Part shown: positions 1-64,000 of the stretch, piece by piece
How the letters are laid out: every line of letters begins with the position of its first letter
How positions within the stretch are numbered: the stretch's first letter is position 1
Assembly: GCA_965226475.1 (NCBI GenBank)
Contig: CBDDDJ010000005.1
Span: 1,741,690 to 1,805,689 of the forward strand
Origin: Alphaproteobacteria bacterium
Lineage (GTDB): Bacteria > Pseudomonadota > Alphaproteobacteria > GCA-2731375
Direction: 5' to 3'
Length of the DNA: 64,000 bases
Position numbers and translations under genes: made by a program
The notes under the pieces: generated by a model
Told to the model about the DNA's origin: nothing
What the model saw: the letters and a program-made list of their open reading frames with translations, nothing else
The model's database searches: none

Positions 1-445
1 CGTCGGAATCGCGCGCGATCCGGGCGGCCGGAGCTACGCCTCGGCCATGATCCGCAACTCGAACGCCGGCTTGTCGCTCCACGCCGACTTCGCGCCCTAC
101 CAGGCGCCGCGGCTGGTCGTCTCCGCTTGCGACGCGCAGCTCGCCTGGAACTTCTACGCCGAGGTGCCCGACGGCCCCGGCGGCCACACCACTATCCACA
201 ACAGCCCCTGGCACTGGGAACGACAGAGCGAGGGCGAGGTCGCGGAGAACTATCCCCTCGATCCGGCCCAGGTCGCGGGCGCCGACCACTTCACCTTCCG
301 CCCCGAGGAGGGCGACATCGTGCTGTTCAACTCCCGCAACCCGCACGAGGTATTCCGCGTCGAGGATCCGGCGGGCAAGGACCGCATCGGTCTCGCCACC
401 TTCATCGCCCGGATGCCGTCGGGCGCGCTCCGTCTCTGGTCCTGA
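1..445 (+). CDS. 2OG-Fe(II) oxygenase superfamily protein, C-terminal portion (5' end lies outside window)
   Basis: ORF 47..445 is open to the window edge. The 'GDIVLFNSRNPHEV' segment resembles the C-terminal jelly-roll strand of Fe(II)/2OG dioxygenases. Confidence 0.4.
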   Translation, partial: VGIARDPGGRSYASAMIRNSNAGLSLHADFAPYQAPRLVVSACDAQLAWNFYAEVPDGPGGHTTIHNSPWHWERQSEGEVAENYPLDPAQVAGADHFTFRPEEGDIVLFNSRNPHEVFRVEDPAGKDRIGLATFIARMPSGALRLWS

Positions 446-1861
446 AGAGGACGTAGGCGGCCAGCAGGTTGAGTGCCGCCATGGTGGCGAAAGCGCCCTC
501 GAAGCCGCCGAAGAGGCTGGTCAGCAGGCTGAAGGTGGAGGGGCCGAGGGCGACGCCGAAATAGAGACAGACGGCCGTACCCGAGGTGGCGAGCGCCACC
601 TGGTCCGGCGCCAGGCGGACGACTTCCGCCAGCGGGATGCCGTTCCAGCCCGAGGCGGTGAAGCCGAGCAGGGCGGCGACCGCCGCCAGGGCCGGGAACG
701 GCCAGGCTGGCGACGCCAGGATCAGAAGCAGCAGAAAGCCGCTGGTGGCGAGACCGATCAGGCCGAGCGCCGCGCCGCCCACCATGACGCGGTCGCTGAC
801 CCAACCCCAAAAGGGCCTGGCGACGACGCCGCTCAACTGCATCGCCGCGTAGACCAGACCGGCGTCGATCAGATCGAGGCCGGCGACCTCGACCAGATAG
901 ACGACGAGAAAGGCGAACAGGCTCATCTGCACCCCGGAATAGACCAGGCAGCAGACGGCGACGACGCGAAGATCCGGGCGCCGGAGTATCAGCAGGACCG
1001 AGGCCCAGAGCATCGCCGGCCGGATCGGCGCGTCCGGCTCGCGGTCGCGGTCGTAGCGGGCGCGGATCGGCTGAACCGCCAGCACCACGAACAGCACGGT
1101 GGCGCTCGCCAGCAATATCGCCGCCCGCCAGCCGGCGGCGACGGCGACGACGGGCAGCACGGCGCCCGCCAGCATGCCGCCCAAGGGCACGCCGCTCTGC
1201 TTCATCGAGAAGACCACGCCCCGCCACTCGGCCGGGGTCTCGCGGGCCAGGATATGGCTCGCCGCCGGCGTCGCCGGGCCTTAACCGCAGCCGATCAGCG
1301 CCCATCGCCACGATCAGCCCCAGCGAGCCGCTCATCGTGAGCGCGGTCGCCAACGCCGCCAGGCAAAGACCGACCTGGCAGACCCAGATGGCGCCGTGGC
1401 GGCGGACGAGCGGCCCGCTCACCATGCTGCCGAAGGTCGCGCCCAGAAAGACCAGCGACGCGTGTATGCCGACCCGGCTCGGATCGACGCCTGGAGCACA
1501 TCTTTCTAATACGGAACCATTTGACCGGGATTATTTTGTGCCGTGGCGGCGCTGCGGTTGCGACGGCGATGTGGGGCATCGGTGAGCGAGCGCAGCGCCG
1601 CCACGGCGCAAAAGGACCCGGCCGAAGGTGCCCCTGGGTACGTTTTGGGTGCGTTGCGACGCTTGTCCGATGCCCCACATCGCGCTGCGCGCCGCGCCTG
1701 CCCAAAACGCACCCAGGGGCTATCAAATGGTCCCGTATTAGAAAGATGTGCTCCCGGTCCGCCGCCATCGCCGGCGCCAGCACCGGCACGGCGAGAAAGG
1801 TCAGCACGGCGGAGAGCTGGATCGACGTGGTGACCGCGAGGGGGCCGATGGCGGAACGCAT
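402..1861 (-). pseudogene. MFS transporter, disrupted by a 263-bp MITE insertion plus an apparent frameshift
   Basis: Three minus-strand ORF pieces (1295..1861 N-terminus, 250..1425 frame, 402..1217 frame) all translate into hydrophobic MFS-like TM segments. The N-terminal 35 codons are separated from the remainder by the palindromic element at 1493..1755, and the frame changes again near 1217..1295. Confidence 0.6.
1493..1755. mobile_element. MITE-like element with about 32-bp terminal inverted repeats (GGAGCACATCTTTCTAATACGGAACCATTTGA), inserted in the MFS gene
   Basis: Left end 1493..1524 and right end 1724..1755 are reverse complements with a single mismatch. The interior holds several nested palindromes (gccgtggcggcgctgcg/cgcagcgccgccacggc; gatgtggggcatcgg/ccgatgccccacatc). 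There is no coding capacity. Confidence 0.7.
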
Positions 1862-1915
1862 GGAACGGGAGAAATCGCTTGCCGGCCCGGTGTCGAGGTT
1901 CGATGAAACCGTGCG

Positions 1916-2790
1916 TCAGTAGGGCCGGTCGCCGCGCACCAGGATTCGGTAGAGCATGCGGTGCTGGCTTTGGTCGTAGTCGAAGCCGGCCTTGTGCATG
2001 GCGGAGCGGTTGTCGATCAGCAGCATGTCGCCCAGGCGGTATTCGTGGGTGTAGGCGAACTCCGGGCGGATCGCCGTCTCCAACAGTTCGGTCAGGAACG
2101 CCTGGGTCTCGTCGGGCGCCATGCCGAGGATGTTCTCGGTCTTGTTCTGGTGGAACCAGATCGCCTTGGTGCCGCGTTCGGGGTGGGTGCGCACGAGCGG
2201 CTGGATCAGCGGCGCGCCCTCGGCCGCCGCCGCCCGCTGGTCGGCGACGATGTCGGGGTTGGCGTCCGTGCTCCTGGCGCGGGCACTGCTGATCAGCGTG
2301 TTGGCGGTACGCATGGGATCGATCCGCCGGCGCGTCTCGTCCGGCAGCGCCTCGTAGGCCGCCCGCATGTTGCAGACCGAGGTGCCGCCGCCCGACTCCG
2401 GCAGCGCCACGGGATAGAGGCTGGTGAACTTGGGCGGGTGTTCCTGGTTGGTGTGGTCGGTGTGCCAGGAGGCGTTGTTCGCCATCTTGGCCGGCCGGCC
2501 CTGGCTGTCCTTGTGGCGGTTGGACAGCACGCTCACCAGCGGCACGCCGTCGGCGAGAAAGCGCCGGTTCTGGTCCTCCATCAGCTCGCCGAAATTCTCC
2601 GCCGCGCGCTGGAATTCCGCGGCGGTGAAGTGCTGGTCGCGTATGACCAGGACGACATGGTCCACGAGGGCACCGTAAAGCGCCTGGCGCGTCGCCTCGT
2701 CGAGCGGCAGGCGGAGGTCCACGCCCGTGGCCTCGGCCCCGATGTGCTCCTTGATCTTGGTGATCGTCGGCGACGGCGTCTCGGCGAGCA
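1916..2790 (-). CDS. TauD/TfdA-family alpha-ketoglutarate-dependent dioxygenase
   Basis: The C-terminal 291 aa of ORF 1916..4333 (starting MLAETPSP) carry TauD-like HxD...H motifs (WHTDHT, MHKAG). The rest of the 805-aa ORF is a read-through artefact of high GC. Confidence 0.75.
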
Positions 2791-2897
2791 TTGATGCTCC
2801 CTCTTCATCGCGGGACGGCGGGCGGACGGCGGGCGGACGCCCGCCGAACGGCACGAATAGTGTAACACGTCCGGACATCGACAATGGAGCGCGGCGC

Positions 2898-3087
2898 ATG
2901 GACCCTCTCTTCGATTTTACCGGCAAGGTGGTACCGATCACGAGCGACAGCCGGGGCCTGGGCCTGGCCATGGCGCGGGCTTTCGCGGAGCGCGGCGCCA
3001 ATCTGATCATCGCCAGCCGCAAGCTGGAGAACCGCGAAAAGGTGGCGGCGGAGCTGGAAGGCCTCGGCATCGAGGCTCGAGTGGCGA
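2898..3087 (+). pseudogene. Short-chain dehydrogenase/reductase (SDR), N-terminal fragment only (about 63 aa), truncated by foreign insertion
   Basis: MDPLFDFTGKVVPITSDSRGLGLAMARAFAERGANLIIASRKLE is a classical SDR Rossmann N-terminus (TGxxxGxG). The reading frame degenerates after about 3087, where the AT-rich foreign DNA and IS begin. Confidence 0.65.
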
Positions 3088-3170
3088 GCTGCGGGCCGCA
3101 CGGCCCGGTTTCGAGGGTACAAACGACATTCTCGTGTACGTCCATCATTTTATCTGTATAGACGATAATC

Positions 3171-4778
3171 CGTAACTGCCCAGGTACGTGGCCGCCTTTC
3201 AGGCGGCGTGGAGACGTGCGATCAGGGTTTCGGGATTTTCCATGAGCGCCTGGATGATGTTCCAGCCCTGTTTTCTGGCGGTCGAGATGAAGCCGCGGAC
3301 GGTGGCAAAGTCTTCGGCGCCTTTCTGGCTGCGGAAGCCGCCGGAGATTTTCTGCTTGACCTTCATCATGCGCCCGTCCTGCTCGGCCTGATTGTTGGTG
3401 AACGGCACGGCGAAATTGGTGAGGAAGCGTAGCGCATCTTCCTTGCGAGCCTGAAGGCGCCGGAGAAGGTTGTGGCCGACGCGGCGCGGCTTGCGTCCCC
3501 GGCGCCTGGCCTTGCCCTCGACCGGTTTGGGCGCGAGAGGAGGTTGGGCCTCGTGAAAGGCGATGCCCTCGGCCGTGATGGCGTCCCAACATCGTCGGAA
3601 GCGGCTGACGAGGCTTGGTTTCAGCGCCACTCCCCGCTCCCGGGCGAGATTTACCGCGTGGCAGGCGCGGCGCAATAGTCTCTGCATCTTGCCCGCCCAG
3701 TCCTCCTTCTCGATCTCGACCAGGGCTTGCAACTCGCGCAGGTGATGGGCGTTGCACAGCGCGTGCCGCACCCCCTCCATCGTGAAGTACGGCTTCCAGT
3801 GGTCGTGGACGACGATGCCGCCGACGCCGCCGAGCAGGCTGCCGCGCCGGGGCGAAACCCGGTAGAAGGTCAACAGCGCCGTGGACGCGACGTGCAACCA
3901 TTGACCCCGCCCGGCGACCCGGAACCCGGTCTCGTCCATGTGCTTGACCGGCGCCGATTTCACCAGCTCGCGGATCGTCCCGACGACGCCTTGCACGGAC
4001 TCGGCGCTGTTTCGGCCCATCCGCGCGATGCTCGCCGCAGACAGCCCGGCCCCGAACAGATCCTTCATCAATGCGGCCAGGCGGTCCTCGGGCAGGAGCT
4101 GGTAGTGCGACAGGTAGACCACCATGGCTCCGATCCGACCGCCGTACTGAACCGGGCCGGTGACGCCGTCGGGAAAGGAAGCCCGAGTTTGCGTGCCGCA
4201 ATGCCCGCAACGGCAGCGATGCGCCCGATGCTCCGTGACCACCAGGGGCCGGGGCTCGGGCAGGTCGAAAACCTGACGGGCGCCGTGGCCGGTGGTCATA
4301 TCCGGCGTCAATCCCGAACCACACCGCCGGCACGTCTCGGGATAATGATCGACGCTGGCGTCGGGATCGGCGACTTGGCGCAGGGTCTCGCCCTCGTGGC
4401 CCTTCTGCCCGCCCGGCTTGCGATCCGATTTTCCGCGAAGGCTCCCGGTGCGTCGCTTCTTCTTCCCCGCCGGCGGTTTGTTCAATCCATCGCTGGACGG
4501 CGGCTTGCCGCTGTTCGTGCTGTTCAGGCCAAGCTGGCGCTCGAGTTCGCCAAGCCGGAGTTCGAGCTCGGCGAGCCGCGACCCTTGGGCCAGCACCACA
4601 TCGATCAGGTCGTCTTTCGACAAAAAGGCGAGAGCATACCTATCCATCGAATCCTTAGAATCGACCCACCATCTCTTGTCAAACGAAATCTAGGCCGTCA
4701 GCGCCTCAAACCCACAAAATCTGCCCCGAGAGACCCAATCCGCAGCCCCAGCGAAATCAGATACCTGGGCAGTTACAT
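3171..4778 (-). mobile_element. IS66-family insertion sequence, ISBst12-like single-ORF type (about 1.6 kb)
   Basis: Terminal inverted repeats GTAACTGCCCAGGTAC (3171..3186) and GTACCTGGGCAGTTAC-like (4762..4777) match at 15 of 16 positions and start with GTAA as in IS66-family ends. They enclose a single 482-aa IS66-type transposase. Confidence 0.75.
3199..4647 (-). CDS. IS66-family transposase (TnpC-like, DDE)
   Basis: A 482-aa ORF with an N-terminal leucine zipper, a CxxC...CxxC zinc-finger region (CRRCGSG...CRCGHCG) and a C-terminal DDE core typical of IS66 TnpC. Confidence 0.85.
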   Translation of the reverse strand: MDRYALAFLSKDDLIDVVLAQGSRLAELELRLGELERQLGLNSTNSGKPPSSDGLNKPPAGKKKRRTGSLRGKSDRKPGGQKGHEGETLRQVADPDASVDHYPETCRRCGSGLTPDMTTGHGARQVFDLPEPRPLVVTEHRAHRCRCGHCGTQTRASFPDGVTGPVQYGGRIGAMVVYLSHYQLLPEDRLAALMKDLFGAGLSAASIARMGRNSAESVQGVVGTIRELVKSAPVKHMDETGFRVAGRGQWLHVASTALLTFYRVSPRRGSLLGGVGGIVVHDHWKPYFTMEGVRHALCNAHHLRELQALVEIEKEDWAGKMQRLLRRACHAVNLARERGVALKPSLVSRFRRCWDAITAEGIAFHEAQPPLAPKPVEGKARRRGRKPRRVGHNLLRRLQARKEDALRFLTNFAVPFTNNQAEQDGRMMKVKQKISGGFRSQKGAEDFATVRGFISTARKQGWNIIQALMENPETLIARLHAA

Positions 4779-4794
4779 ATATACATCATACCAT

Positions 4795-6036
4795 TTACAT
4801 TGTATTAATCATTTCAATGCGACAGCATCGATAGGCCCACCGCGCAAACGACCTTCCGGCAACTTCCTCGCCGGCCATCCAGCGCAGCACAACAGGGTCA
4901 AGTTTTGAATTGTGAATTTCTCCTACCAATGATCCGGCGTTGACTATCCGACGTCCGCCGCTGACGCCATCGAAATCATAATTCAAGACTTGAACCCTTG
5001 CATCGTGGGATGTTGCCGAGAGCCCGGATCGGGCGGCGAGCGTCTCGACGGTGGCGTATTGCCGTGGCATCAATTCCGATTGATGCGCCCCAAGCATAAA
5101 CCAGACCTTTTTACAGAAATTCAGCGCAATGTAGGGAGGCATGTTGTTGTGAGGCTGGCTGCCGCCCGCTTCTCCAATGCTCGCCTTGACGAGACCGTGT
5201 TTGAATCCCGCCGGGGCCTGATCAAATTTCACTTTCCGTACGCCAGCATGAAACCAGTATTCATGCTCTGGTCCATGCGTGTGGCTTGGCATCTCTTCTG
5301 CCGTCAGGATGTGCTTTTCCTCGCCACTTATTTCGCCGAAACGGTGGTTAGTAAGTCCGTGTCGTCGATCCGTGTTGACGCCAATGATAAATCGCCCTTG
5401 TGCTTCTTCGTAAGTCACCCAGCCAGTAGGGCATTCTTGACCTGCAAAAGCAATAACCGTATCTCTGGGCAAAACCGCATCATTGAGAACAGCCTCGATT
5501 TTACTAGTTCCCAGTGCTTCCAGTTCTCGGCGAACGTTTGCTTGGAGTTCATCTATGGAGGAGTTAGTATTAGCAAGAATATCCGCAGCCTTACTTGTCA
5601 GGACTGTTTCTGTAGTCTCATTGACTTTTTTACTAATGAGATCTTCTACCTCTTTTTCACCCATTTTATTTTTTATCGCCATCACCACTTGATCATCAAG
5701 TCTATGTTTCAAATTGTCAACAATGCGATACTCGACAACCTTTTGGTCTATCGTTGCTTGCAGAAGTTCCTTCGATTCATCGATGTTTTTTCCAGTGTAA
5801 AAGACAAACGCGCCGCCAATCGTCGTCAGGACGACTGATACGCCGATCGTTAAGTACCTGAACTGGCGTTGAAGGTGTTCGCGGTAGCTCGCCGCCGCGT
5901 TATTATAACTCTCGGAGAGGTGGCTTATTGCATTCGTCAGCGTTTGATCCTGACTCTGCATCACTCGCCTGACTTCGACCTCAACAGCCGTTCTAGTTTC
6001 GTCGTCCATGTCAATCCCCCAAAGAAATGGCGCCAA
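4795..6036 (-). CDS. Membrane-anchored coiled-coil protein with a C-terminal phage tail-collar domain; low-GC foreign gene
   Basis: A 413-aa ORF with one TM helix (YLTIGVSVVLTTIGGAFVFY), a long coiled-coil and a C-terminal tail-collar domain (FAGQECPTGW...EMPSHTH...HNNMPPYIALNFC). GC is about 45 % against about 67 % background. The last ~35 codons read through MITE copy A and on to a stop in the GC-rich DNA between the MITE and the IS66 element, so the true C-terminus is uncertain. Confidence 0.7.
   Translation of the reverse strand: MAPFLWGIDMDDETRTAVEVEVRRVMQSQDQTLTNAISHLSESYNNAAASYREHLQRQFRYLTIGVSVVLTTIGGAFVFYTGKNIDESKELLQATIDQKVVEYRIVDNLKHRLDDQVVMAIKNKMGEKEVEDLISKKVNETTETVLTSKAADILANTNSSIDELQANVRRELEALGTSKIEAVLNDAVLPRDTVIAFAGQECPTGWVTYEEAQGRFIIGVNTDRRHGLTNHRFGEISGEEKHILTAEEMPSHTHGPEHEYWFHAGVRKVKFDQAPAGFKHGLVKASIGEAGGSQPHNNMPPYIALNFCKKVWFMLGAHQSELMPRQYATVETLAARSGLSATSHDARVQVLNYDFDGVSGGRRIVNAGSLVGEIHNSKLDPVVLRWMAGEEVAGRSFARWAYRCCRIEMINTM
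4887..5005. repeat. 120-bp palindromic MITE-like repeat, copy A
   Basis: About 88 % identical to 6119..6238. It has terminal inverted repeats GGGTCAAGTTTTGAATTGTGAATTTC / GAAATCATAATTCAAGACTTGAACCC. Confidence 0.7.
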
Positions 6037-6118
6037 ATATGCCTTGTATGAATTATAGGCTGACTTTCAGGCGTCATCCAAAACTTTTCTCGCATAATCT
6101 CGCCCGCGCGCACACTTT

Positions 6119-6238
6119 GCACAATAGGGTCAAATCTTGAATTGTGAATTTCTCCTACCAATGACCCGGCGTTGTTTATCCGGCATCCGCCACTGGCGCC
6201 ATCAAATTCACAATTCAGGACTTGACCCCTTACATCGC
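6119..6238. repeat. 120-bp palindromic MITE-like repeat, copy B (direct orientation relative to copy A)
   Basis: Same element as 4887..5005, with terminal inverted repeats AGGGTCAAATCTTGAATTGTGAATTT / AAATTCACAATTCAGGACTTGACCCC. It directly abuts the SDR C-terminal remnant. Confidence 0.7.
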
Positions 6239-6430
6239 GCGCCGGAGGAGATCGTCGCCGCCGCGCTCTATCTCGCGGGCGGCGGGGCCAGCTTGACCAG
6301 CGGCACCACCATCCGCGTCGACGGCGGCACCGACCGAGAAACGGGCACCCCCCTCCCTTGCCGGGCAGGAATGGGTTATATCTGGGGCCGGCGCGCGAAG
6401 GGCGCGCCCCGAAACGATGACGGAGGATGA
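6239..6430 (+). pseudogene. SDR C-terminal fragment, probably the 3' remnant of the gene whose 5' part is at 2898..3087
   Basis: The translation EEIVAAALYLAGGGASLTSGTTIRVDGG is the canonical SDR C-terminal motif. The central ~150 codons of the gene are absent. Confidence 0.55.
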
Positions 6431-8803: not shown

Positions 8804-8854
8804 TCGACGTTCGATTAACATGGGCGCTGGCTGTCCGGTGGTCGGACGGCCGAC

Positions 8855-9003
8855 GTTCTCGGGGCGGGGTGAAAGTCCCCACCGGCGGTGATTGCGCCAA
8901 GGCGCATCAGCCCGCGAGCGCCCGCCAAATTATCGGCGGGGTCAGCAGATTCAGTGTGATTCCGAAGCCGACGGTCATAGTCCGGATGGAAGAGAACGGG
9001 AAA
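8855..9003 (+). promoter_or_regulatory. FMN riboswitch (RFN element) upstream of ribH2
   Basis: The sequence contains the conserved RFN blocks GGGGTGAAAGTCCCCACCGGCGGT ... AGCCCGCGAGCGCC ... GGTCAGCAGATTCAGTGTGATTCCGAAGCCGACGGTCATAGTCCGGATGGAAGAGAAC, positioned 5' of a lumazine synthase gene. Confidence 0.85.
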
Positions 9004-12486: not shown

Positions 12487-13457
12487 TTAAAAATAAGGCT
12501 CAATTCGTGAATTGTATGCGTCACCTTGTTACGGCGGCGGCGAGGCAGGCTCGGTCATTGGCGCCGGGGGCGAGGCCGACGAGGTGGAACCAGCTCAGGT
12601 AGTTGTCCAGATAGCGGGTGGCGATGCCGCGGCGGGGACGCAGGAAGTCCTTCAACCGGCTGTGGCGGCTGTTCACCGTCTGCACATGCAGATCGCCCCG
12701 AACCCGTTCCCCCATCGAGCGGTTGAGTGCTTCGTGGCTCACCCCGAGCGCGGCGGCGCAAGGTGGATAGCTCGCGCCACCGTCGGAGACCAGCAGGGCG
12801 TCCTTCGCGACCACCGGGTCGAGAGCAGCCGTGAGCGCCGCCGCGTCGACCCTGGGCAGCACCGCGCTCACCGTCGTCCCGCTCCGCCCCGCCGCCGTGC
12901 CTTGCGTCCCAGCCCGCGCGCGCCCTTCCGGCTCTCCAGGACGTAGGTCTCGTCCGCTTCCACGATCCCCTTGAGCACCTCCGAATCGCTCCGCGCCGCC
13001 GCCAGAAACCGGTGACGCCAGCGGAACGCCGTGCTCACCGCCACGTCGCAGCGCGCCGCCGAGGCCTTCACCGTCTCCCCCTCCGCCAGCGACGCCCCGA
13101 ACGACAGCCAGCGTTCCTTGTGGTGCAGGCCCGACAGCGGCGTACCGGTCAGCGCGTTGAAGGTCCTGCCGCAGCCCTTGCACTGGTAGCGCCGCAGACC
13201 CCGCGCCATACCGCGCGAAACCGCCCCTTCGCTCGAGCAGTGCGGACAGCGCCGGGCCTCGTCCACACCAAGCTCGATCGCGGCCTTCGATGCCTCGCCT
13301 TCGCTCCGGCCCGACAGCACCGCGAGCGCCTCGTGCCGCTGCACGCGCGTCAGCCCGCGCGCCGCCGAAAGCCACACCTGGAAACCCTTGCCGTCCATGA
13401 CCCAACCCCCTGACGTTCCGGGCATTCTATCACAAATGCATACGTTTCACAAATTGA
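12487..13457 (-). mobile_element. IS1595-family insertion sequence (about 971 bp) flanked by an 8-bp target-site duplication AAAAATAA
   Basis: Imperfect terminal inverted repeats GGCTCAATTCGTGAATTGTATGCG (left) and GGCTCAATTTGTGAAACGTATGCA (reverse complement of right). Direct repeats AAAAATAA lie at 12479..12486 and 13458..13465. A second identical copy begins at 63891. Confidence 0.8.
12521..13425 (-). CDS. IS1595-family transposase, split over two overlapping frames (12868..13425 N-part, 12521..about 12900 C-part)
   Basis: The N-terminus has the IS1595 zinc ribbon (CPHCSSEG...YQCKGCGRTF), an HTH and the ADETYV motif. The DDE C-terminus continues in another frame, so this is an apparent frameshift. 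Confidence 0.7.
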
Positions 13458-13584
13458 GCCAAAAATAATGGCTCCCCGGGCACCCCGCTCCCCCGGCCCA
13501 GCCACCCGTGGAGTGTACCCTTGGGGTAGTTGGGCCGGGGGAGCGGGGTGGCCGGGACTTACGATAGTAACCACGAGGAGAGGG

Positions 13585-15129: not shown

Positions 15130-15457
15130 GTCCGCCCCTCGCCTCCGCGCGACTCCCCCACACGGCGCCAGCCTATCGCCCCCTCGCCGGCTTGGCGACA
15201 GCAATGGCGAAGCGGAAAAATAATTTCCGAAACCGTGATGGAGATCACGGACTCTACCGCCCCTAGCGGCCATAATAAGGATGTCCCGTGAACCGATGGG
15301 TTATGGGATGCCGATCCAGGGACCCGTCGGGGACCCGGATGAACGGCTCAACGACAATGGCAAACCGTCGGAAACGGCGGGACGCAAAGCCACCGGCCGT
15401 CCGCCCCAACACCGCAAAGTAGGGGCACGGTAGCGGGGCTACCGAAAGGAGGCCGTC

Positions 15458-46625: not shown

Positions 46626-47046
46626 TAGACACGCAATCGCCGCCCATCGGCGGCGAACCTGACACGCCCGCTCGGCCGGGCAGCGGTGGCGGCGGCCACT
46701 TGGGGAACCCGCGTTCCTTGGCCATGGGCAGGATCGATCCGACGCCCGTTTTTAGAGTGAGGACAGCCCCATCGAACAGAGGGACATGCGGTAACCAACC
46801 CGCGCATAAGAGCTTGATGGACCGTCGATCAAAGCCGTCCCGCCGCTGCCTACATAAGCGGGCGCTACAGAGCATCCGGAAAGAAGCCGGATGACAGGAC
46901 GAGTTCGCGCTTGACACCTTGGGGGGACGATAAGAGCCAAGACACGACATTCCGGTTGGCTAATGCATTGGCAGCTATTGCGACCGTTCAGCACTCCCTC
47001 TAGTCTCGGTTTCGAGAGTGGTTCCGAGCTGCGTTCCTCAGCCTGA

Positions 47047-47976
47047 GTGTCTGGCCCGAAAAGAGTTGAGTGATTTCAGTCAGTTGTGATTCACTGTTTG
47101 TATTTAGCAACCAGGGAGACACAACATGTGGACCAAATTCACTCGCCCGAAGTATGAACGCGACCTGCTGCGCTACGCAAGCGACCTGACGGATGGAGAA
47201 TGGAAGGTGCTGGAGCCGTTGCTGCCTCGCGCCAAAGCGCTGGGACGGCCTCGGACGACGGCATTGCGCGAGGTGGTGAACGCGATCCTCTACCTACTGC
47301 GTAGCGGCTGTCCATGGCGCATGCTGCCCCGGGACTTCCCGCCACGCTCGACGGTGCAGCGCTACTTTTATCTCTGGCGGGACGACGGCACCTGGTCCGA
47401 GGTCAACCGGCAACTGCTGGTCGCGGCGCGCGAGGCCGAGGGCCGCGCGGCCGGCCCGTCGGCCGGTATCATCGACAGTCAGAGCGTAAAAACCACGGAA
47501 AGCGGCGGTATCCGGGGCTTCGACGCCGGAAAGAAAGTCAAGGGCCGCAAGCGTCACATCCTCACCGACACCGGCGGCCTGCTGGTCGCGGTCGTGGTCC
47601 ACGGCGCCGAGATCCAGGACCGCGACGGCGCGCCGGCGGTGTTCGCCGCCATCCCCCGCCACTTTCCCCGCCTGCGCCACGTCTTCGCCGACGGCGCCTA
47701 TGCCGGGCCCAAGCTCGAGGGCGCACTGAAGCGGATCGGCCGCTGGTCGCTGGAGATCGTCAACCGTCCCGCGGGCGTGAAGGGCTTCCAACTCCTGCCC
47801 CGCCGATGGGTCGTCGAGCGCACGCTCGCCTGGCTCAATCGAAACCGGCGGCTGGCCAAGGACTTCGAGACGGCCATCGAGACCGCCGAGGCCTGGATCT
47901 TCCTCGCCAGCATCCAACTCCTCACGCGCCGTCTCGCAAGAGCCTGAAAACACTCGATTCATTTCGAGTCGGACTC
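47047..47976 (+). mobile_element. IS5-family (IS1031-group-like, about 930 bp) insertion sequence, copy 1 of a head-to-tail tandem
   Basis: It has terminal inverted repeats of about 26 bp (GTGTCTGGCCCGAAAAGAGTTGAGTG / CACTCGATTCATTTCGAGTCGGACTC) and a single 273-aa DDE transposase. It is flanked by TGA and TAA trinucleotides. Confidence 0.7.
47126..47947 (+). CDS. IS5-family DDE transposase (copy 1)
   Basis: A 273-aa protein with DDE_Tnp_1 motifs (IDSQSVKT, HILTDTGGL, FADGAYAG). Confidence 0.85.
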   Translation: MWTKFTRPKYERDLLRYASDLTDGEWKVLEPLLPRAKALGRPRTTALREVVNAILYLLRSGCPWRMLPRDFPPRSTVQRYFYLWRDDGTWSEVNRQLLVAAREAEGRAAGPSAGIIDSQSVKTTESGGIRGFDAGKKVKGRKRHILTDTGGLLVAVVVHGAEIQDRDGAPAVFAAIPRHFPRLRHVFADGAYAGPKLEGALKRIGRWSLEIVNRPAGVKGFQLLPRRWVVERTLAWLNRNRRLAKDFETAIETAEAWIFLASIQLLTRRLARA

Positions 47977-47979
47977 TAA

Positions 47980-48909
47980 GTGTCTGGCCCGAAAAGAGTT
48001 GAGTGATTTCAGTCAGTTGTGATTCACTGTTTGTATTTAGCAACCAGGGAGACACAACATGTGGACCAAAATCACTCGCCCGAAGTATGAACGCGACCTG
48101 CTGCGCTACGCAAGCGACCTGACGGATGGAGAATGGAAGGTGCTGGAGCCGTTGCTGCCTCGCGCCAAAGCGCTGGGACGGCCTCGGACGACGGCATTGC
48201 GCGAGGTGGTGAACGCGATCCTCTACCTACTGCGTAGCGGCTGTCCATGGCGCATGCTGCCCCGGGACTTCCCGCCACGCTCGACGGTGCAGCGCTACTT
48301 TTATCTCTGGCGGGACGACGGCACCTGGTCCGAGGTCAACCGGCAACTGCTGGTCGCGGCGCGCGAGGCCGAGGGCCGCGCGGCCGGCCCGTCGGCCGGT
48401 ATCATCGACAGTCAGAGCGTAAAAACCACGGAAAGCGGCGGTATCCGGGGCTTCGACGCCGGAAAGAAAGTCAAGGGCCGCAAGCGTCACATCCTCACCG
48501 ACACCGGCGGCCTGCTGGTCGCGGTCGTGGTCCACGGCGCCGAGATCCAGGACCGCGACGGCGCGCCGGCGGTGTTCGCCGCCATCCCCCGCCACTTTCC
48601 CCGCCTGCGCCACGTCTTCGCCGACGGCGCCTATGCCGGGCCCAAGCTCGAGGGCGCACTGAAGCGGATCGGCCGCTGGTCGCTGGAGATCGTCAACCGT
48701 CCCGCGGGCGTGAAGGGCTTCCAACTCCTGCCCCGCCGATGGGTCGTCGAGCGCACGCTCGCCTGGCTCAATCGAAACCGGCGGCTGGCCAAGGACTTCG
48801 AGACGGCCATCGAGACCGCCGAGGCCTGGATCTTCCTCGCCAGCATCCAACTCCTCACGCGCCGTCTCGCAAGAGCCTGAAAACACTCGATTCATTTCGA
48901 GTCGGACTC
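47980..48909 (+). mobile_element. IS5-family (IS1031-group-like) insertion sequence, copy 2 (differs from copy 1 by about one nucleotide in the CDS)
   Basis: It is identical in organisation, with a period of 933 bp (930-bp IS plus a 3-bp TAA junction). The downstream flank is TTA. Confidence 0.7.
48059..48880 (+). CDS. IS5-family DDE transposase (copy 2)
   Basis: A 273-aa protein differing from copy 1 at one residue (F5I). Confidence 0.85.
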   Translation: MWTKITRPKYERDLLRYASDLTDGEWKVLEPLLPRAKALGRPRTTALREVVNAILYLLRSGCPWRMLPRDFPPRSTVQRYFYLWRDDGTWSEVNRQLLVAAREAEGRAAGPSAGIIDSQSVKTTESGGIRGFDAGKKVKGRKRHILTDTGGLLVAVVVHGAEIQDRDGAPAVFAAIPRHFPRLRHVFADGAYAGPKLEGALKRIGRWSLEIVNRPAGVKGFQLLPRRWVVERTLAWLNRNRRLAKDFETAIETAEAWIFLASIQLLTRRLARA

Positions 48910-49061
48910 TTAGACTGAAGCGTGAGAGCCGATACCGCGCCAGGATTGCGCCCCTTCGCGTTAGGGCGTAGCAATGTCGATCGGAGATTTATCCACGTTG
49001 GTGCCCTCGCCGAGTACGATCATGGCATTTGCGTGGTCGGACAACGAGGGAGGGAGAAGCG

Positions 49062-63608: not shown

Positions 63609-63890
63609 AGCCGCCTCGGCGCCTGTGGATCTTTCGCCGAACTATGCCGGCGACGATGACTTTGGGGGAGTCGGAAGACTCCATTACGGTTGGTCTGGAC
63701 ATGGTGTATCGCCTTTTGGGGATCGTGGCATGCCCAATCGAGAGAGTGGGCTTTTTTCTCGAATTGCCGGAACAGACGGCGCCGGAGCGCGTGGCCGGCG
63801 ATCATCGTCGACGGCGGCGCGATGTATCCCATCCAGGCGCTCTGGCCGGCGCCTCGGTCGGTCGAGGCCGGAATAGAGGGTAAAATAGAA

Positions 63891-64000
63891 GGCTCAATTC
63901 GTGAATTGTATGCGTCACCTTGTTACGGCGGCGGCGAGGCAGGCTCGGTCATTGGCGCCGGGGGCGAGGCCGACGAGGTGGAACCAGCTCAGGTAGTTGT
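63891..64000 (-). mobile_element. Second copy of the IS1595-family element (left 110 bp; continues beyond window)
   Basis: 63891..64000 is identical to 12487..12596. The flank here is AAATAGAA rather than AAAAATAA, so this is an independent insertion. Confidence 0.75.

Follow-up and report, generated by a model that had tools for sequence, protein, structure and literature searches.

We analysed a 64,000-nucleotide stretch of an alphaproteobacterial genome (contig CBDDDJ010000005.1, hereafter the window), in which two direct, palindromic repeats of 119 bp bracket a single gene for a tail-fibre-like protein. Our preferred reading, which we hold with somewhat better than even confidence, is that the repeats are non-autonomous doublets of the short terminal repeat ('arm') of TIRYT-type Y1/HUH transposase genes, and that the pair together with the enclosed cargo gene is a composite unit that was acquired horizontally and came to lie in a short-chain dehydrogenase (SDR) gene. 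The preliminary description of the window had presented the repeats as a novel miniature inverted-repeat transposable element (MITE) whose partner transposase was unknown. Both statements need revision: the arms of the repeats are the terminal inverted repeats (TIRs) of TIRYT genes in other bacteria, and these arm-flanked genes identify the enzyme class as Y1/HUH and not DDE.

A repeat finder returned one long direct repeat in the region (4887–5005 and 6119–6237, spacing 1,232 bp) and a local alignment of the two copies ended at the same bases, so that the two direct copies reported before are real. They are identical at 103 of 119 positions (86.6%; the value given earlier was about 88% for a length of 120 bp, the last base of which is not shared), and the 16 mismatches are spread evenly over the repeat. 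Both copies are short, non-coding, imperfect palindromes with terminal inverted repeats. In copy 1 (plus strand, 3' of the cargo gene) the arms occupy 4895–4919 and 4973–4997 around a core of 53–54 nt, the right arm being weaker than the left and carrying a 1-nt insertion. Copy 2 (plus strand, 5' of the cargo gene) has arms of 25 nt at 6127–6151 and 6204–6228 that are 92% complementary, the same value that was obtained for the outer arms of the pair (4895–4919 versus 6204–6228). The arm pattern matched three times in the window at three mismatches or fewer, compared with 0.00 matches expected from 100 shuffles, and no further copy of the repeat was found elsewhere in the 64 kb. As single-stranded DNA, the copies folded better than shuffled sequences (z = -3.3 and -4.4).

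The element ends read GGGTCAAG...CTTGACCC. As had been noted before, they match no insertion sequence (IS) in the window, and the ends of the neighbouring IS66-family element differ. Neither copy is bordered by a target-site duplication (flanks CCAGCGCA/TGGGATGT for copy 1 and CACACTTT/CGCGCCGG for copy 2), nor does a direct repeat surround the 104-bp arm-to-arm core. This absence fits Y1/HUH enzymes and not a classical DDE MITE. That is, the repeats are palindromic and non-autonomous as the term MITE implies, but they do not conform to its classical definition. A stretch at 4799–4825 weakly resembles an inverted inner arm plus core. Its score was reached by 3 of 300 shuffles under one scoring scheme and by 74 of 500 under a gap-friendly scheme (not significant), and we consider it marginal as a third copy. 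A promoter-like match in copy 2 (6121–6148, minus strand; TTCACA, 16-nt spacer, TATTGT) faces the cargo gene, and the outer arm end CTTGACCC contains a -35-like TTGACC; the number of promoter-like matches in the region did not exceed that in shuffled sequences.

The arm recurs in many other genomes. A degenerate arm pattern matched at least 119 genome stretches in a scan of one genome per species, and the 24-mer arm matched 17 more stretches in metagenomes. Collapsing the matches left 111 distinct arms, with the consensus gGGGTCAARTCTTGAATTGTGAATT. Among them, the block gGGGTCAA(A/G)TCTTGAATTGTGAATT has sharp limits: every position except R is 85–100% conserved, and conservation drops to 30–50% immediately outside. 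Among the matches listed, the hosts comprise Desulfobacterales, other Deltaproteobacteria, several Gammaproteobacteria, an alphaproteobacterial metagenome-assembled genome (MAG) and an acidobacterial MAG. The arms in the window differ from the consensus at 1–3 of 24 positions. IMG/VR yielded 3 matches only, each with 5–6 mismatches to the 24-nt arm consensus, which looks like chance; a tight-doublet search of the PLSDB plasmids gave no real match, and the arm sequence itself was not found in a literature search. Within the loci that we fetched, 31 doublets (spacers of 6–147 nt) and 68 single arms were counted. In addition, two GC-rich metagenome contigs hold arrays of 4–8 same-strand arms (variant GGGGTCAGGTCTTGAATTGTGAATT) spaced 29–116 nt apart (L142, 12100–12490; L135, 1–180), which are more reminiscent of clustered binding sites or of a BIME-like array than of hairpin doublets.

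What connects the arm with an enzyme is its position in these other genomes. A plus arm and a minus arm at a distance of about 1 kb always frame just one gene, whose product measures 287–323 aa. All eight complete TIRYT genes examined were flanked by the arm (L001, L017, L097, L108, L078, L143, L151 and L152), two of which (L151 and L152) had been picked by protein similarity alone. The upstream arm is located about 60 nt before the TIRYT start, beside a TTGACA/TATAAT-like promoter, and the downstream arm, which is inverted, overlaps the stop codon. There it encodes an invariant C-terminal NSQFK(I/T) plus stop (L001, L017, L078, L097 and L108), even at 38% protein identity. The arm-flanked proteins matched Pfam Y1_Tnp (IS200-like) at 4.9e-12 and 4.2e-14 and the NCBIfam family of REP-associated tyrosine transposases (REP_Tyr_transpos) with 72.8 bits at a cut-off of 80. 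The HUH motif and the tyrosine of YxxxNP are invariant in these proteins, and their C-terminal tail is DnaA-domain-IV-like (DnaA-C) or HTH_23. Association with the arm holds across TIRYTs that are just 36–38% identical. No DDE protein was found between plus and minus arms at IS-like spacing; every such gene was Y1/HUH. The protein family is large (at least 7,997 matches at E ≤ 1e-10 among 8,000 candidates scored), and many of its matches lie on contigs of about 1.04 kb, the signature of a multicopy element.

TIRYTs have been described as residing in 'TIRtrons', whose TIRs share the motif GGGGWSAS and occur also as singles, dimers and clusters (Di Nocera 2013, PMC3733652). Most TIRYTs fall into subclass 2.1 of the TnpA(REP)-like proteins, with Bac_DnaA_C or helix-turn-helix (HTH) tails (Quentin 2018, PMC6006769). 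By their domain architecture, the arm-flanked proteins are consistent with this subclass. By sequence, the arms in the window belong to the TIR-repeat family of TIRYTs and TIRtrons. Two kinds of intermediate, namely truncated TIRtrons (L133 and L140) and doublets of 125–195 bp in which TIRtron-end sequence is retained (such as L024), link full-length elements with miniature ones and show how the latter could derive from the former.

The inner 9 nt of the arm (positions 17–25; 4911–4919, 6143–6151 and 6204–6212 in the window) are DnaA-box-like when compared with the consensus TTATNCACA. Read on the opposite strand, they are TAATTCACA in 39 arms, AAATTCACA in 26 and TTATTCACA in 10, the last being largely TIRtron ends. 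TTATTCACA agrees at every position with TT[AT]TNCACA, the DnaA-box consensus quoted in PMC6006769; in that study only the outer GGGGWSAS motif was compared with the DnaA box, and no resemblance was seen. Binding of the 9-mer by the DnaA-like HTH of TIRYTs, or by host DnaA, would help to explain why the arm stays constant despite the divergence of the enzyme.

The arrangement of two doublets around one gene is not unique to the window. All five loci with two doublets (the window included) show a spacing of 1.1–1.6 kb around exactly one open reading frame (ORF). Besides the 302-aa tail-fibre-like protein of the window, the cargos comprise a 220-aa protein with no function assigned in an alphaproteobacterial MAG (L009; two copies about 95% identical over about 135 bp), a 289-aa protein with no function assigned on a metagenome contig (L132; doublets of about 155 bp), a 360-aa protein in a gammaproteobacterial MAG that had no Pfam, PADLOC or PHROG match (L136 = L072), and the 484-aa defence reverse transcriptase Drt5 in a deltaproteobacterial MAG (L021; PADLOC 1.5e-157). 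The Drt5 gene (1260–2930 of its locus) is tightly flanked by the two doublets. For four of the five cargos, PADLOC gave no convincing defence match. The doublets are direct repeats in 4/4 loci where the spacer permits a call, and the GC content inside the bracket is 5–18 percentage points below that outside in 5/5. By our rough estimate, if the position of a second doublet within ±4 kb were random, the probability of its distance lying in a 0.5-kb band would be about 0.125; agreement of all five spacings by chance is unlikely. We know of no description elsewhere of doublets paired in this way around foreign single genes. The putative mobilisation of the intervening gene, as suggested in the preliminary description, gains some backing from four further loci of the same architecture; the left boundary of the foreign DNA in the window, however, is not at copy 1.

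The cargo gene of the window (5101–6009, minus strand, coding from 6009 to 5104; 302 codons) is the sole ORF between the copies. Its product has an N-terminal transmembrane segment, a long helical region and a C-terminal Gp10_C/tail-fibre-like domain (30 bits against Pfam Gp10_C, cut-off 27), and it matched PHROG tail and tail-fibre families down to 3e-11. The former wording 'tail-collar-like' is therefore fair, although the gene has no phage context around it. An AlphaFold model (mean pLDDT 53.8) was too poor for a fold search. On two sister metagenome contigs, which are 99.4% identical (L120 and L121), the gene encodes a 302-aa protein ending in FCKKV followed by TGA. In the window, this stop (5101–5103) reads TGG, and the ORF continues through copy 1 to 4795; the read-through product, starting from the ATG at 6009, comprises 404 aa with a tail encoded by the repeat. 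GC content is 0.49 inside the bracket versus 0.67 in neighbouring genes. The earlier picture of direct, palindromic, non-coding copies that flank a foreign gene and have the appearance of non-autonomous mobile DNA was confirmed.

Between copy 1 and the cargo stop codon lies a GC-rich spacer of 95 nt (5006–5100). We considered 5007–5100 as a second, decayed SDR C-terminus, but this was unsupported: the flanks were no more similar than shuffled sequences. Two homologues of the cargo protein (P0002 and P0003, 32–34% identity) are not flanked by arms. The gene for P0003 (32% identical to the cargo) adjoins genes for Abi_alpha, SNase, SRAP and an AAA-ATPase in a defence-island-like, arm-free setting (L128, 1–4705).

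The surroundings of the pair point to an insertion into an SDR gene. Relatives whose EamA proteins are 76–84% identical carry TauD, an intact 250-aa SDR, cupin and EamA, and no arm lies within 20 kb in the relatives with the intact SDR. In the window, the SDR gene is split into a 5' fragment (2898–3108, plus strand, about residues 1–70) and a 3' fragment (6238–6334, plus strand) that abuts copy 2 and encodes residues 219–250, the last 32 codons; residues from about 71 to 218 are absent from the window. Similarity to the intact SDR sets in again exactly where copy 2 ends, so that the right end of this copy is a true junction. Such an exact junction supports a horizontally acquired composite that inserted into the SDR gene. 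It is the one clean junction that we have, and the flanks of other family members revealed no common target.

On the left, the SDR 5' fragment is followed by 63 nt of AT-rich non-SDR DNA (3109–3171), an IS66-family insertion sequence (3172–4776, minus strand; transposase ORF 3199–4647) and 110 nt of non-SDR DNA (4777–4886) that extend to copy 1. The IS66-family element has perfect 15-nt inverted repeats (GTAACTGCCCAGGTA), shows no visible 8-bp target duplication and entered the foreign block at a later time. A different IS ends directly at the foreign block in sister contig L121, at 4832/4833 (window 4805/4806), 29 nt from the IS66-family end, and the AT-rich DNA on the left side of copy 1 looks like a landing pad for IS elements. 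The IS of L121 is the one found at about 12488–13460 in the window, and its ORF has a Zn-ribbon-like CxxC...CxxC motif. The sequence at 12488–12606 recurs with 98% identity at 63881–64000; this 120-bp repeat probably represents the end of another copy of that IS, truncated by the window edge.

How could such a unit have arisen? In our preferred reading, each copy is a doublet of two inverted 25-nt arms around a short core, a REPIN- or MITE-like derivative of a TIRtron. A TIRYT encoded elsewhere would recognise the arms in trans, nick and rejoin the DNA through its HUH/tyrosine site, and insert it without target-site duplication. Two direct doublets and a single cargo gene of lower GC content make up the recurrent composite unit. 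Its outer arms reproduce both the plus...minus geometry and the size (about 1–1.6 kb) of a transposase-bearing TIRtron; alternatively, the two direct hairpins present the end geometry of IS200/IS605 elements. Here, the unit would have arrived by horizontal transfer and landed in the SDR gene, which relatives have in intact form, and IS66-family insertion plus deletion would later have scrambled the left side.

Several observations weigh against this scenario. The repeat was seen as two copies only in the window, and its activity in this host is at best putative. A tblastn search with two divergent TIRYTs found no TIRYT gene in the 64 kb, and we are not aware of biochemical work on any TIRYT. 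The arm in the window (GGGGTCAA, (G)GGGTCAA) agrees with the published GGGGWSAS at 7/8 positions, the last being A and not S, and a metagenome scan with the arm-core junction of the window subfamily (GAATTGTGAATTTCTCCTACC) gave 0 matches. The five-locus sample is small, and its members were chosen for containing arms. Cargo units end in full doublets but TIRtrons in single arms, and a simple replacement of transposase by cargo is inadequate. Finally, foreign DNA reaches 173 nt to the left of copy 1 (3109–3171 plus 4777–4886), so that the block is not cleanly bounded by doublets; together with the 150-codon SDR deletion and the IS66-family insertion, these 173 nt obscure the left end and speak against a clean single event.

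Other explanations have to be measured against the same data. The best of them, which we nevertheless regard as unlikely, treats the doublet as an att/attC-like recombination site at which a circular form of gene plus doublet integrates into a resident doublet, whether by homologous recombination or with the help of an enzyme of the site-specific or HUH type, leaving direct doublets on both sides. It would account for direct doublets around exactly one ORF in every two-doublet locus; in L009, moreover, the differences between the two highly similar copies cluster near one end, and palindromic sites could fold as single strands like integron attC sites. However, the empty SDR site of the relatives has no resident doublet, and the evenly spread differences between the window copies show no crossover pattern. 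The palindrome ends, read from the sequence, have none of the integron core sites RYYYAAC/GTTRRRY, for which reason an integron attC interpretation was rejected. No integrase was seen adjoining any unit; in the window, the neighbours examined for this were TauD, the IS66-family transposase, cupin and EamA, and the whole window was not searched for intI.

Quite improbable, in our view, is that the repeats do not move but have a structural or regulatory role, as hairpins at transcript ends, as insulators or as sites of protein binding, and were imported with the acquired gene, which they flank by chance. In favour of this, the RNA of copy 2 read from the cargo strand forms a strong fold (-59.7 kcal/mol, z = -6.3), and copy 1 lies just 3' of the cargo gene. 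The DnaA-box-like 9-mer in the arm and the direct arm arrays of L142 and L135, which resemble binding-site clusters, would also suit such a role. Yet the RNA fold of copy 1 is weak (z = -1.8), neither hairpin is followed by a terminator-like U-tract, and Rfam gave no family at gathering score (sub-threshold miRNA-like hairpin matches only). Immobile palindromes would also leave two things unexplained, namely the presence of these 25 nt on both sides of transposase genes in several phyla and the foreign composition of the units.

There is little to recommend the classical MITE of the preliminary description, that is, a remnant left by deletion within a DDE-type IS that has the same TIRs and whose transposase is yet to be seen. 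Copies of about 120 bp that are non-coding and have 25-nt terminal inverted repeats would suit it. In DDE systems, a gene with a MITE on either side can behave as a composite transposon, as with the Tn3-derived TIMEs, and such known pairs speak in its favour. Against it stand the missing target-site duplication at either copy, the lack of any IS in the window with these ends, and the finding that the arm-bounded genes are all Y1/HUH and never DDE. That 119 bp were simply duplicated in tandem on the spot, with no mobile DNA involved, was named by the preliminary description as its own refutation and is effectively excluded: two direct copies only, 1.2 kb apart in 64 kb, would suggest it, but their flanks outside the 119 bp (left 80 nt, right 124 nt) are no more similar between the sites than shuffled sequence, divergence between the copies is 13% although their limits are sharp, the arm is dispersed over many genomes (more than 100 loci in other phyla), and the whole block is missing from the relatives.

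A broader idea, doubtful but worth stating, is that the 25-nt arm marks a cross-phylum system for capture and movement of single genes. In such a system, hairpin doublets would be shuttled by TIRYTs, with a DnaA-domain-IV-like HTH reading the 9-mer TTATTCACA/TAATTCACA. Each pair would flank one passenger gene, among them anti-phage genes such as Drt5 and perhaps that of the membrane-anchored tail-fibre-like protein described here. In function, the system would parallel integron cassettes, with HUH chemistry as its basis.

Three further features of the window touch none of these subjects. A tandem duplication in perfect register (47043–47977 and 47976–48910; 935 bp, 99.8% identical) holds a 273-aa ORF in each copy. 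An FMN riboswitch (8851–9001, 106.7 bits) lies upstream of the gene for DMRL synthase (ribH), and a c-di-GMP-I-GGC riboswitch was found at 15350–15447 (65.8 bits).

Taken together, the 'orphan MITE' of this high-GC genome is now tied to the TIRYT/TIRtron class. Two aspects go beyond this assignment: one 25-nt arm is nearly constant across phyla while the transposases diverge to about 36–38% identity, and a doublet-gene-doublet layout is repeated with compositionally foreign cargo that includes a known defence gene. If the units move, single genes would be exchanged not only by integrons and composite transposons but also by HUH tyrosine transposases. If they are immobile, the repeat is still assigned to a known family and the appearance of the disrupted dehydrogenase is explained. 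The DnaA-box-like 9-mer provides a testable idea for the target of the DnaA-like domain of TIRYTs.

Among known systems, integron cassettes share with the units a single promoter-poor ORF between imperfect palindromes of about 60–150 bp that can fold as single strands, and a diverse cargo that includes defence genes. The units differ in having no R''/R' core sites and no arrays beyond one cassette; the associated enzyme is a Y1 HUH transposase, and no IntI was seen beside the units, in a window not searched for intI. MITE-flanked composites of DDE elements are known as well, for example the Tn3-derived TIMEs and the MITE-bracketed integrons of Acinetobacter. They likewise consist of two miniature elements that flank a passenger segment, which could move by the outermost inverted repeats, but they depend on a DDE enzyme instead of an HUH tyrosine, and target-site duplications are absent here.

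IS200/IS605 elements (the IS608 paradigm and PATE derivatives) have a Y1 HUH enzyme and make no target duplication, and the doublet-gene-doublet block matches their direct hairpin palindromes at both ends. In contrast to these elements, a passenger gene stands in place of the transposase, the tail-fibre-like cargo being the only ORF; a conserved target tetranucleotide was not identified for the units, for which there is one clean junction; and TIRtron ends are single inverted arms, not subterminal hairpins. In the REPINs with their RAYTs, two inverted short repeats form a hairpin-capable non-coding doublet (Bertels & Rainey 2011, PMC3116915; Nunvar 2010, PMC2817692), which is presumably moved in trans by a Y1 transposase; the gene of this enzyme has the same repeat at its flanks. 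The single arm studied here is, however, not a GC-rich palindrome (its self-complementary stretches are just 4 bp) and has no GTAG tag, the transposase-bearing unit appears to be multicopy whereas RAYTs are typically single-copy, and the doublet copy number is low (two in the 64-kb window).

The nearest relatives are the TIRtrons themselves. They differ from our case as follows: here the arm agrees with GGGGWSAS at 7 of 8 positions, one 25-nt arm is kept over several phyla while the proteins fall to 36–38% identity, and the window has a passenger-enclosing doublet pair, an arrangement not described in PMC3733652 or PMC6006769, with no TIRYT gene in its 64 kb. In other respects the likeness is close. 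TIRtrons carry RAYT-like Y1/HUH genes with an HTH or DnaA_C tail between long inverted repeats starting with GGGG (PMC3733652, PMC6006769), their downstream repeat overlaps the 3' end of the gene, their repeats are scattered as singles, dimers and clusters, and the arms in the window are the arms of such genes in other genomes.

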